From IMG/VR virus record IMGVR_UViG_3300045988_031686: a stretch of DNA of 60,224 bases; one strand, given 5' to 3'. The position numbers were made by a program, and so were the translations under genes. Below the pieces are notes generated by a model. That model was not told the origin of the DNA and searched no databases. It was given only the letters and a program-made list of their open reading frames with translations. Positions 34,977 to 36,180 of the stretch are shown here, piece after piece. Each line of letters opens with the position of its first letter. The stretch's first letter is position 1. Source of the stretch: a virus.

Positions 34977-36180
34977 ATGGCAAAACACACAATGTCAGAC
35001 CTATATCAGATGCAGTCGCTTCCGCTTTCTGCAAAAATAAGTATGACTGAACGTAGAATAAATGAATGGGTTGATGAATTTGGCGAAGATGGCGTGTATC
35101 TGTCATTTAGTGGCGGTAAAGATAGCACAGTTTTAGGGCACATAATCAGAGAAGTTTGCGGATATAAAAATATTCCTTTTGTGTTCGTAGATGTTCCAAC
35201 ACAGTATCCAGAGTTAAAGGAGTTTGCACAGACTTTTGATAACCTTGTGATTTTGAGACCTAAGATTTCATTTGCAGAAGTTTGTGAAAAGTATGGTTTT
35301 CCAATGATTAGCAAGGAAGTGTCAAATTGCGTAAGCGGTGCAAGAAAATACGTTAAATACCTTGACAGTCAAAAATCTAATAACACAATCTTAACAGACA
35401 GACAGACAGACAGACAGACAGACAGTTCCGTATGCTTGCTATATGGCAGACCTGCTAGGAATAGACAGGAGAATAAACAAGCAGAACGAACAGTACAAGA
35501 ATTTACAGATGGGAGTTGTCCCTAACGGTTCAGAATACAGATTGCACAGACTGAATGGAGAACTGGAAGACAGTAAAGGAAATTATAGTCGGTTTAATCA
35601 AGAAAAATATAAATTCTTTCTTGATGCGCCATTTGAGATAAGTGATTTATGTTGTGACATTATGAAGAAAAAGCCTGCACACGACTATGAAAAGAAAACA
35701 GGCAGAAAGCCGATTATAGCGACTATGGCAAGCAAAAGCGTTATGCGTACACAAAAATGGTTACAGGATGGATGTAATGCTTTTAATGTCCTAAAACCAC
35801 ATAGCAACCCTATGAGCTTTTGGGTGGAACAGGATGTGTTGCTTTACATCAAAGAAAAAAATCTGCCTATTTGTTCAGTTTATGGCGAAGTAGTCACAGA
35901 TTATGAAGCTATGGGGCAATGTGAAAATCAGATGTCACTTGCGGATTTTGGGATTTTTGATAAGGAAAGACCATTGCTGAAAACGACAGGTTGTAAAAGA
36001 ACAGGTTGCGTTCTATGTGGATTCGGATGTCACTTAGAAAAAGAAAGCAGATTTTTAAGGCTGAAAGAAACGCACCCTAAATTCCATAATCTGCTATATA
36101 TTTTGAAAAATAATGGCGTGACATACGCAGAAGCTATTGACTGGGTAAACGAACACGGAAATATGAATATTAAGTATTAA
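34977..36180 (+). pseudogene. PAPS-reductase / PP-loop ATPase family gene, split into two frames at an (ACAG)8 repeat (candidate phase-variable gene)
   Basis: The N-terminal half carries SFSGGKDS. The C-terminal half (frame +1, open from 35395) carries CCDIMKKKP, ATMASKSVMRTQKW and PMSFWVEQDVLLYI, which belong to the same domain. Confidence 0.75.
35394..35425 (+). repeat. Perfect tetranucleotide microsatellite (ACAG)8
   Basis: Counted directly: acag x 8. Confidence 0.97.

Follow-up and report, generated by a model that had tools for sequence, protein, structure and literature searches.

An intragenic ACAG repeat tract as a candidate phase-variation switch in a PAPS reductase-like gene of a phage

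Described repeat switches and the ACAG locus

Tetranucleotide repeats that control genes through their unit number have been described in Haemophilus influenzae and Neisseria (mod, lgtC-type loci). Here, we describe a locus of similar build in the window, a 60,224-nucleotide stretch of viral DNA (IMG/VR record IMGVR_UViG_3300045988_031686), where eight perfect ACAG units interrupt a gene coding for a protein of the PAPS reductase family. As in the bacterial loci, the tract lies inside a gene and its unit number sets the reading frame, its instability depends on its length, ON and OFF forms occur among close relatives, and DNA methyltransferase and hsdS genes are frequently linked to it. Length-dependent rates at tetranucleotide loci were reported by De Bolle et al. 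2000 (as cited in PMC11741434), and phase-variable methyltransferases (phasevarions) have been surveyed (PMC5909438, PMC7383803). The present locus differs in that it appears to belong to a temperate phage of gut Firmicutes rather than to the chromosome of a Gram-negative pathogen, in that its target is a PAPS reductase-like gene with the tract in mid-domain, in a low-confidence and probably disordered loop, and in that a promoter-like motif stands at a fixed spacing to the tract. We know of no tract-coupled promoter-like motif at the classical tetranucleotide loci.

Slippage has also been described as a switch in phages themselves. The agt gene of T2 and the rIIA gene of T4 are, like the gene considered here, switched by reversible slippage frameshifts, and the T2 gene codes for a DNA-modification enzyme: an A run in agt turns glucosylation off, which lets the phage escape TgvAB, or on, which lets it escape McrA/BC (Gomez, Barrick, Waters; bioRxiv 10.1101/2025.10.21.683753). 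As a direct experimental precedent, T2 agt supports the logic of bet-hedging. The T2 and T4 tracts, found in virulent coliphages, are A runs of 6-9 nt without obvious specialisation, whereas the present tract is a long tetranucleotide array of 1-20 units that is conserved family-wide and known from sequence alone. In Campylobacter phages, hypermutable polyG tracts (Sorensen et al. 2021, Cell Rep 35:109214, as cited in PMC12823448) diversify phenotype within a phage population, as the repeats described here would. According to the citing account, however, these homopolymers lie in genes for receptor-binding proteins, in phages that infect a Gram-negative host, and affect host range and not nucleic-acid modification.

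On the side of the enzyme, the anti-Dnd protein of a Vibrio crassostreae podovirus (Piel et al., bioRxiv 10.1101/2021.05.05.442762; Nat Microbiol 2022) and the DndC/SspD proteins share the PAPS_reduct PP-loop domain with the window's protein. The Vibrio protein is phage-encoded and acts in counter-defence, and phage engineering identified it, fused to a Dam methylase, as part of the anti-Dnd function. It is at best about 27% identical to the window's protein, and no repeat tract or phase variation has been described for it. Further differences are that the window's protein has a CC...CxxC motif and an insertion of about 95 amino acids (aa), and no dnd or ssp partners are encoded nearby.

A full-text literature search found no account of phage genes switched by multi-unit tetranucleotide tracts, of repeat-bearing PAPS reductases in phages, of such loci in phages of gut Firmicutes or of promoter-tract coupling. 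Mechanistically, the locus looks like a textbook intragenic tetranucleotide contingency locus; what look new are the tetranucleotide form in a phage, the target gene and the host group. A preliminary description of this DNA had known of no tetranucleotide contingency loci in phages of Gram-positive hosts; phase variation through homopolymers is already published for other phages.

Tract length, reading frame and selection

The (ACAG)8 tract occupies positions 35394-35425 of the plus strand, as first described, and is the single tetranucleotide array of the whole window (Tandem Repeats Finder: period 4, 8.0 copies, 100% matches). By our own estimate, a perfect tetranucleotide run of 32 nt would arise in random sequence of 60 kb with a probability of the order of 1e-12. 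In the ON frame, the tract is read as TDRQ repeats. Upstream of it, an open reading frame (ORF) of 182 aa (34977-35525, plus strand) starts at an ATG at 34977 behind a GAGGTG ribosome-binding site, passes through the tract and stops at 35523-35525. This is the present OFF state of the switched gene, with a product made up of the PP-loop N-terminal half and about 30 out-of-frame residues, followed by the premature stop. The C-terminal half lies in the +1 frame (35395-36180, plus strand), which is closed upstream by a TAA at 35392-35394, is open from 35395 and stops at 36178-36180; it contains CCDIMKKKP, ATMASKSVMRTQKW and PMSFWVEQDVLLYI. Its first ATG, at 35443, lies 18 nt past the tract and has no Shine-Dalgarno sequence. 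Both frames are supported by the ORF list, by translation and by Pfam, with the N-terminal half matching positions 3-71 of the 175-position PAPS_reduct profile (E 1.6e-6) and the C-terminal half matching positions 80-172. The repeat cuts one PAPS_reduct domain into two pieces, in agreement with the mid-domain split initially proposed.

To relate unit number to product, the gene was rebuilt by script with 4 to 13 ACAG units. Counts of 4, 7, 10 and 13 gave a single ORF of 395, 399, 403 and 407 aa, respectively, while translation ended after 178, 182 and 186 aa with 5, 8 and 11 units, and after 157, 161 and 165 aa with 6, 9 and 12 units. The present eight-unit allele is OFF and one slippage step away from ON (minus one or plus two units). 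The frame arithmetic of the preliminary description, in which either change fuses the halves into one ORF of about 399 aa, was thus exact, and the OFF state it assigned to eight units was borne out by the stop at 182 aa. The locus displays the features of a contingency locus: a perfect repeat inside an ORF, a unit length not divisible by three, and a unit number that toggles between a full-length and a truncated product.

Homologues of the repaired protein number more than 7,500. Those listed, 120 in all, share 77-99% identity with it, are full length (369-447 aa) and are all single chains; none is split in two genes, an arrangement that had been raised as a possible objection. At the tract site, the sampled proteins, of 382-447 aa, read LTAVPY, without a repeat, or carry one or two copies of TDRQ, and alleles translated from viral contigs contain up to six or more copies. 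Among the 80 best viral-contig relatives, which we examined at the DNA level, the pure ACAG run at the homologous site spans 1-20 units, so relatives are not fixed at eight; the same range, with a median of 9, was found in 100 distinct alleles from human-gut viral and metagenome contigs.

Tract length changes faster than the surrounding sequence. Three relatives (L002, L005 and L078) with only 3-4 differences over 3 kb of flank nevertheless have 6, 9 and 8 pure units, and a relative 96.6% identical to the window over 10 kb (L095) has 4 units against the window's 8. For alleles with identical 1100-nt flanks and at least 5 units, tract length differs in 35 of 59 pairs, the 24 same-length pairs including several in which one contig was fetched twice. 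With 4 units or fewer, none of 52 allele pairs differs in length, at any divergence. Such a length threshold, here at about 5 units, classically marks repeats that are prone to slippage. An ACAG tract of 4-13 pure units persists in divergent lineages (65-72% aa identity) whose flanks are unrelated, and in two lineages AACG or ACGA repeats replace ACAG at the same site.

A number of contigs break off within the tract at one end or the other, frequently with exactly 13 units left (L054, L057, L058, L066, L079 and about 15 of L096-L215 and L296-L333). These breaks probably mark the k-mer limit of assemblers, so that real tracts can exceed the counts given here, and they may also reflect heterogeneity within samples.

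In some lineages, the frame has been restored by other means. A lineage found on 153 contigs (P0043) reads TDRQFHMLAMSDPLGIERR, where a frameshift after a 2-unit tract is corrected six codons on, and in the L029 allele the frame is corrected about 30 codons past the tract. These compensated frameshifts indicate that almost any sequence is acceptable in the segment past the tract. The alleles concerned (L019-L023, L036 and L044 for P0043, and L029) share a short, frozen tract of 2-4 pure units and a second indel that restores the frame.

We then compared the frequencies of the frame states. The tblastn-ranked list of relatives favours ON alleles (50 ON, 25 OFF), and DNA-pattern scans served as unbiased samples. 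These scans found 12 ON and 25 OFF alleles on viral contigs and 5 ON and 19 OFF on human-gut metagenome contigs, giving 17 ON and 44 OFF when pooled, a fraction (17/61) consistent with one third (p = 0.42). A set of 72 distinct complete alleles comprised 35 ON alleles, 34 OFF alleles with both halves open and 3 that were otherwise damaged. Among the 34 intact OFF alleles, 22 need a change of -1 or +2 units to return to ON, and 12 need +1 or -2 units. In OFF-OFF pairs, the ratio of nonsynonymous to synonymous substitution rates (dN/dS) is 0.084 for the downstream, out-of-frame half and 0.104 for the upstream half; both halves are under purifying selection. Since a permanently off gene would not keep dN/dS this low, the OFF state is transient on an evolutionary scale. 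Taken together, the presence of ON alleles and of both OFF frames with intact halves, and a tract that outpaces its flanks, strongly support the phase variation suspected from the window alone, and the tract is very probably a reversible and selected repeat switch.

Further genes with the tract, the promoter-like motif and alternative readings

The same tract is found in other genes. A scan for the 5' flank followed by the tract returned at least 120 viral stretches, 42 of which hold the PAPS-like gene. Most of the others hold a C5 DNA methyltransferase of related phages, where a ACACAATCTTA(ACAG)n module of 2-16 units follows motif VIII (L105:6980-9203; L099:3150-6400; about 57 distinct alleles among L096-L215). 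The tract is read there as LIDNGTLPQHNLNRQTDRQ, compared with YLDSQKSNNTILTDRQ in the PAPS gene. When the 57 distinct methyltransferase alleles were sorted by a three-frame classification, the frames were about equally common: an immediate stop in 20, a tail of about 45 aa, REVANCIKARYD, in about 13, and a tail of about 77 aa ending in TLRARDYKG in about 21. Both tails resemble segments of target-recognition domains, and the methyltransferase tract might be a three-state specificity switch. A separate ORF downstream of the methyltransferase contains further such segments together with motifs IX and X. In L099, a six-G run about 320-335 nt past the tract lies in the downstream ORF between the open frames KVLRGDLPYPKSQ (closed by a stop) and LGGICPTLRANK, and could represent another site of slippage.

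A neutral scan for (ACAG)7 yielded 55 contexts. On one viral contig (L204:86-6224), a type I restriction-modification locus has a complete hsdS joined by ACACAATCTTA(ACAG)17 to a half-hsdS, followed by an ATPase gene and hsdR; this hsdS also contains a TAELTAELTAEL repeat. Tracts of 9-29 units occur in a reverse transcriptase gene, with 24 units in mid-domain (L285:2702-2797), in a second PAPS_reduct family, just after the start codon (L266:3515-3550), in a DPPY DNA methyltransferase gene identified by eye (L227:808-847), and in small ORFs consisting of a ribosome-binding site, an ATG and 5-7 codons before the tract (M..(N/K)(T/I)ILTDRQ; L216, L271 and L276). A phasevarion was rejected for the window itself: its switched gene does not code for a methyltransferase, and no methyltransferase turned up in the ORFs scanned. 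In L105 (4335-5191), the PAPS-like gene is cut about 40 nt past the tract and unrelated genes follow, which suggests recombination at or beside the tract.

Immediately upstream of the window's tract, inside the coding sequence, lies a sigma-70-like motif, TTGACA-N16-CACAAT (35362-35389, plus strand), which was the best site (10 of 12 positions) in a scan of 33000-38500. It is separated from the tract by CTTA (4 nt), and the first repeat unit supplies C(-1) A(+1) G(+2), an optimal context for transcription start. The same geometry, with different sequence, precedes ACAG tracts in the L038 lineage (TTGCAG-N16-TAGAAT, gap CCTT), in L045 (TTGCAG-N16-TAAAAT, gap CCTA) and in L035 (TTGACG-N16-CATAAT, gap CTCG), and an ACGA tract in L055 (TTGATT-N16-TAAAAT, gap TCTG). 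In the methyltransferase, in the hsdS of L204 and in L147, the motif reads TTGACA-N17-CACAAT, again with a CTTA gap before ACAG. The -10-like hexamer of the L019 lineage is altered, reading CGCAAT in place of CACAAT.

The statistics of this motif were drawn from 44 context clusters (L001-L295), separated from one another by more than 20 differences over 60 upstream positions, many of which clusters are diverged lineages of the PAPS gene and so are not fully independent. TTGAC begins 32-33 nt before the tract in 19 of these clusters, compared with about 0.04 expected per offset. In 21 of 44 clusters, at least 9 of 12 positions match and the -10 hexamer ends 3-5 nt from the start of the tract, compared with 0 of 44 at each of six slid positions; on the other strand, such a match was found in 4 of 54. 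A subset of low-GC AACG tracts shows the same arrangement of motif and tract. Synonymous sites within both hexamers are invariant in 47 alleles. Conservation at the protein level was rejected as the full cause of the TTGACA motif, since its codon phase varies (YLD, LID, LLTF) and the protein positions it occupies are not homologous. Furthermore, in contexts where the tract is N-terminal, the -35 hexamer overlies the ribosome-binding site and the ATG. A motif of such varied codon phase and position, overlapping these initiation signals, cannot be explained by protein constraint.

These observations bring in a different reading, in which tract and promoter are mainly a transcriptional module, transcripts would begin within the repeat, tract length would tune the expression of downstream genes, and the frameshift would be a side effect. 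The recurrent -35/N16-17/-10/N3-5/tract geometry, its presence before AACG and ACGA tracts as well and the start context offered by the first unit all fit such a module. As the main function of the tract we nevertheless consider it unlikely, because the tract always lies in coding sequence, on the coding strand and in units whose length is not divisible by three, because both gene halves are under purifying selection, and because the genes affected, methyltransferases and hsdS, are of the kinds that are phase-variable in bacteria (PMC7383803). It is compatible with a frame switch and may add to it. Somewhat short of an even chance, and hence put forward tentatively, is the proposal that the window's tract is one copy of a composite switch module present in phages and prophages of low-GC gut bacteria, in which a functional sigma-A-type promoter (-35, N16-17, -10) would start transcription in the first unit of a tetranucleotide array, ACAG here and AACG or ACGA elsewhere, and would be embedded in modification and defence genes (PAPS-like, C5 and N6 methyltransferases, hsdS, reverse transcriptase). 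Such a promoter could raise slippage through open-complex or R-loop formation, or could uncouple downstream transcription from the frame state.

One contig of a Blautia metagenome-assembled genome (L081:2780-3040, CATXEA010000016.1) displays an unusual junction. A bacterial GH3 glycosidase gene and intergenic DNA lead into TTGACA-N17-TAAAAT-TTTTG(ACAG)5, after which only the C-terminal half of the PAPS-like gene follows. The junction is either a chimeric assembly formed via the ACAG tract, implying a promoter-plus-tract locus on the host chromosome, or a real rearrangement at the tract.

The tract could also be a neutral microsatellite in a dispensable and decaying gene, with a frame state of no consequence. 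An ON share of about one third in the unbiased samples is what would be seen without selection, and the location of the tract in a low-confidence, probably disordered loop would suit such a repeat. Decay, however, is hard to reconcile with 34 of the 37 non-ON alleles keeping both halves fully open and with a dN/dS of 0.084 in the out-of-frame half of OFF alleles. Moreover, the tract site is kept down to about 65% identity, in two lineages with another tetranucleotide, and lineages with frozen short tracts regained the frame by compensating indels instead of decaying. Neutrality is therefore improbable in our view, and a pseudogene was rejected on the intact halves and the dN/dS of 0.08.

Still less probable is a naturally split gene, in which an internal promoter would drive a C-terminal polypeptide that works with the N-terminal fragment, so that eight units would not be a null state. 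Such a gene would make use of the strong promoter-like motif ending 4 nt before the tract and of the ATG at 35443. This ATG lacks a Shine-Dalgarno sequence, though, and its methionine is not conserved, the L038 lineage reading RIADL there. In N-terminal contexts, the motif covers the gene's own ribosome-binding site and ATG, and so cannot serve its expression. The split gene was rejected on this unconserved internal start, on the single-chain homologues (more than 7,500, with all 120 listed being single chains) and on the occurrence of OFF alleles in both wrong frames (22 and 12), which end the N-terminal fragment differently. Finally, although many contigs end in long tracts, several at exactly 13 units as expected of a k-mer limit, an assembly or sequencing artefact, or ribosomal or transcriptional slippage that recodes eight units in frame, is extremely unlikely: the 32-nt tract is far below read length, length differences recur across hundreds of independent assemblies from different projects, for which reason an assembly artefact was rejected, and the ACAG repeats offer neither the slippery heptamer nor the long A/T run that recoding usually requires.

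The switched enzyme, its genome and the proposed benefit

The repaired protein passes Pfam PF01507 PAPS_reduct with 50 bits against a cut-off of 22.5 (E 4.5e-13), as does each half alone, and belongs to PHROG 424 (E 2.2e-35). Its motifs were examined in an alignment (A1) of 48 sequences reaching down to 41% identity. Within the PP-loop SFSGGKDS, an ATP pyrophosphatase signature (35103-35126, plus strand), S45, G47, K48, D49 and S50 are invariant. The same holds for C220 and C221 of a Cys-Cys pair (35650-35655, plus strand) and for C339 and C342 of a CxxC motif reading CVLC (36007-36018, plus strand), the two halves of CC...CxxC. In APS reductases, this motif binds a [4Fe-4S] cluster. The enzyme has the cysteine set of APS-reductase/DndC-type Fe-S PP-loop enzymes, with a putative cluster.

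An AlphaFold model of the 4-unit protein has a mean pLDDT of 82, falling below 50 for residues 136-176 around the tract peptide. The top Foldseek matches are the PAPS/APS reductases 7rge, 1sur, 2oq2 and 2goy (target-normalised TM 0.5-0.6, probability 1.00), and the predicted fold is that of a PAPS/APS reductase, making the protein a predicted PP-loop ATPase. The tract probably sits in a disordered, lineage-specific insertion loop. Homologues from L084 (41% identity) and Dulem virus 39 have no tract and lack about 60-65 insertion residues. The Dulem virus 39 gene (L334, PP511791.1:29575-33588), from a lemur faeces phage, is annotated as 'reductase'; a cytosine-specific methyltransferase gene immediately precedes it, and a YycJ-like metallo-beta-lactamase protein is encoded two genes further on. 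Some close homologues (P0011, P0014, P0087, P0096, P0103, P0112 and P0117) carry an extra insertion of about 35 aa after YIKEN in the C-terminal half, e.g. AKRMIEVRMSDDKMFYGNRIVYKKTGASVENTEFYF, which the window's allele lacks.

CysH is defined by a C-terminal catalytic ECGLH cysteine motif and a sulfate-assimilation gene context. We rejected CysH proper for the window's enzyme, which has no ECGLH, its C-terminus reading CVLCGFGCHLEKE, and which scores 19.5 bits against a cut-off of 154 with the NCBIfam CysH model PRK02090; the neighbouring genes, coding for RecT, a CxxCxxCC protein and a metallo-beta-lactamase-fold hydrolase, provide no sulfate-assimilation context. PADLOC gave weak matches to SspD (E 3.8e-6) and BrxP (E 1.8e-6) that span only about 45-50 PP-loop residues. 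Phage PAPS reductases have been filed under 'Host metabolism' (PMC11318856), as is PHROG 424 (host-metabolism or auxiliary metabolic gene), while a 2026 survey regards them as likely DndC/SspD-derived anti-defence genes (PMC13551039). The enzyme is a probable DNA-modification or anti-defence enzyme. This functional assignment is contextual, because only the PP-loop resembles SspD, BrxP and DndC and partner genes are absent; the cytosine methyltransferase gene beside the tract-less homologue of Dulem virus 39 is part of that context. The link to nucleic-acid modification and defence drawn in the preliminary description is reinforced by the identical tract in C5 methyltransferase, hsdS and reverse transcriptase genes, and by the Vibrio PAPS protein that counters Dnd.

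From sequence comparisons, we infer a mechanism that includes slippage itself, switching within a single population, loss of function upon truncation, the activity of the enzyme and a selective benefit. Polymerase slippage on the tract during prophage or lytic replication would add or remove 4-nt units, and would be frequent once the tract reaches about 5 units or more. Counts of 4, 7, 10 and so forth would join the halves in frame to give a full-length enzyme with a (TDRQ)k loop, whereas with other counts translation would end 25-60 codons past the tract and the C-terminal half would be lost, presumably leaving a null product. Populations would always hold both ON and OFF phages, a form of bet-hedging. 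The enzyme would modify phage nucleic acid or neutralise a Dnd/Ssp-like defence, with the ON state being useful in hosts that have such a defence and costly or self-exposing in others. That the benefit consists of DNA-modification or anti-defence bet-hedging has close to an even chance of being right, and the explanation combining switch and benefit is, on the whole, probable.

Several points weigh against it. Switching inside one phage population is deduced from the comparison of alleles. An ON share of one third is also expected if a dispensable gene simply drifts, so that the case for function lies in the intact halves and the low dN/dS only. Around the gene in the window, no dnd or ssp partners were found, which argues against membership of a Dnd/Ssp system, and searches of PDB, NCBIfam, PADLOC and Foldseek returned matches at the level of the PP-loop or the fold and no specific function. 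The promoter-like motif upstream of the tract suggests a further layer outside the switch model. Finally, the host, probably a member of the Lachnospiraceae, is assigned tentatively, on the names of metagenome-assembled genomes only.

The window represents a human-gut phage genome of about 60 kb. Its genes all lie on the same strand and include those for the terminase large subunit, portal, major head protein, a tail protein, SbcC-like and RecT-like proteins, SSB and a large serine integrase, the last of which indicates a temperate phage. The RecT-like single-strand annealing protein (33151-34254, plus strand; PHROG 2185, E 3.6e-76) places the switched gene in a recombination/replication module. 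Next to it lies the gene for a CxxCxxCC (YkgJ-type) zinc- or iron-chelating protein (34259-34648, plus strand; Pfam PF03692, E 9.5e-10), also called in L095, and a 109-aa ORF sits on this same side of the switched gene. Immediately downstream of the switched gene is that for the metallo-beta-lactamase-fold hydrolase (36193-36915, plus strand; PHROG 392, E 3.2e-59), called as Lactamase_B in L095.

A megablast search with 6 kb around the gene found no DNA-level match among GenBank phages, and the nearest named phages, of Ruminococcus, Clostridium perfringens and Vibrio, are below 47% protein identity (tblastn). Exact-sequence searches with the window's two half-ORFs found no record of either. 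The flank pattern was matched by 38 metagenome contigs, all of them from the human gut. Relatives bear no organism names other than those of Blautia and Lachnospiraceae metagenome-assembled genomes, which agree with the Gram-positive host assumed at the outset and are the sole basis for it.

Two other repeats were observed in the window. At 29766-29887, inside an ORF at 29424-30119, a 27-nt unit, GGGGCTTCCTCAGCGACGGGCTATAAA, is repeated 4.5 times with 85% identity, and may represent either a 9-aa repeat in the protein or several binding sites. An AT-rich stretch between ORFs of the tail module contains AT repeated 17 times with 81% matches (20847-20879) and an overlapping array with a 12-nt period (20846-20907; both from Tandem Repeats Finder).

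If the proposed explanation is true, temperate phages of abundant gut Firmicutes carry long tetranucleotide contingency loci in modification or counter-defence genes, and each phage population would be a standing mixture of modification states. This bears on host range and on escape from restriction and Dnd-like systems, as well as on the annotation of metagenomic phage genes that look 'frameshifted' or 'pseudogenised'. The locus would also offer a natural ON/OFF pair for finding the role of the widespread phage 'PAPS reductase' (PHROG 424). The composite module, if real, would be a previously unrecognised, selected architecture for programmed hypermutation, and the coupling of promoter and tract, if functional, would be a mechanism that sets or exploits the hypermutability of the repeat.

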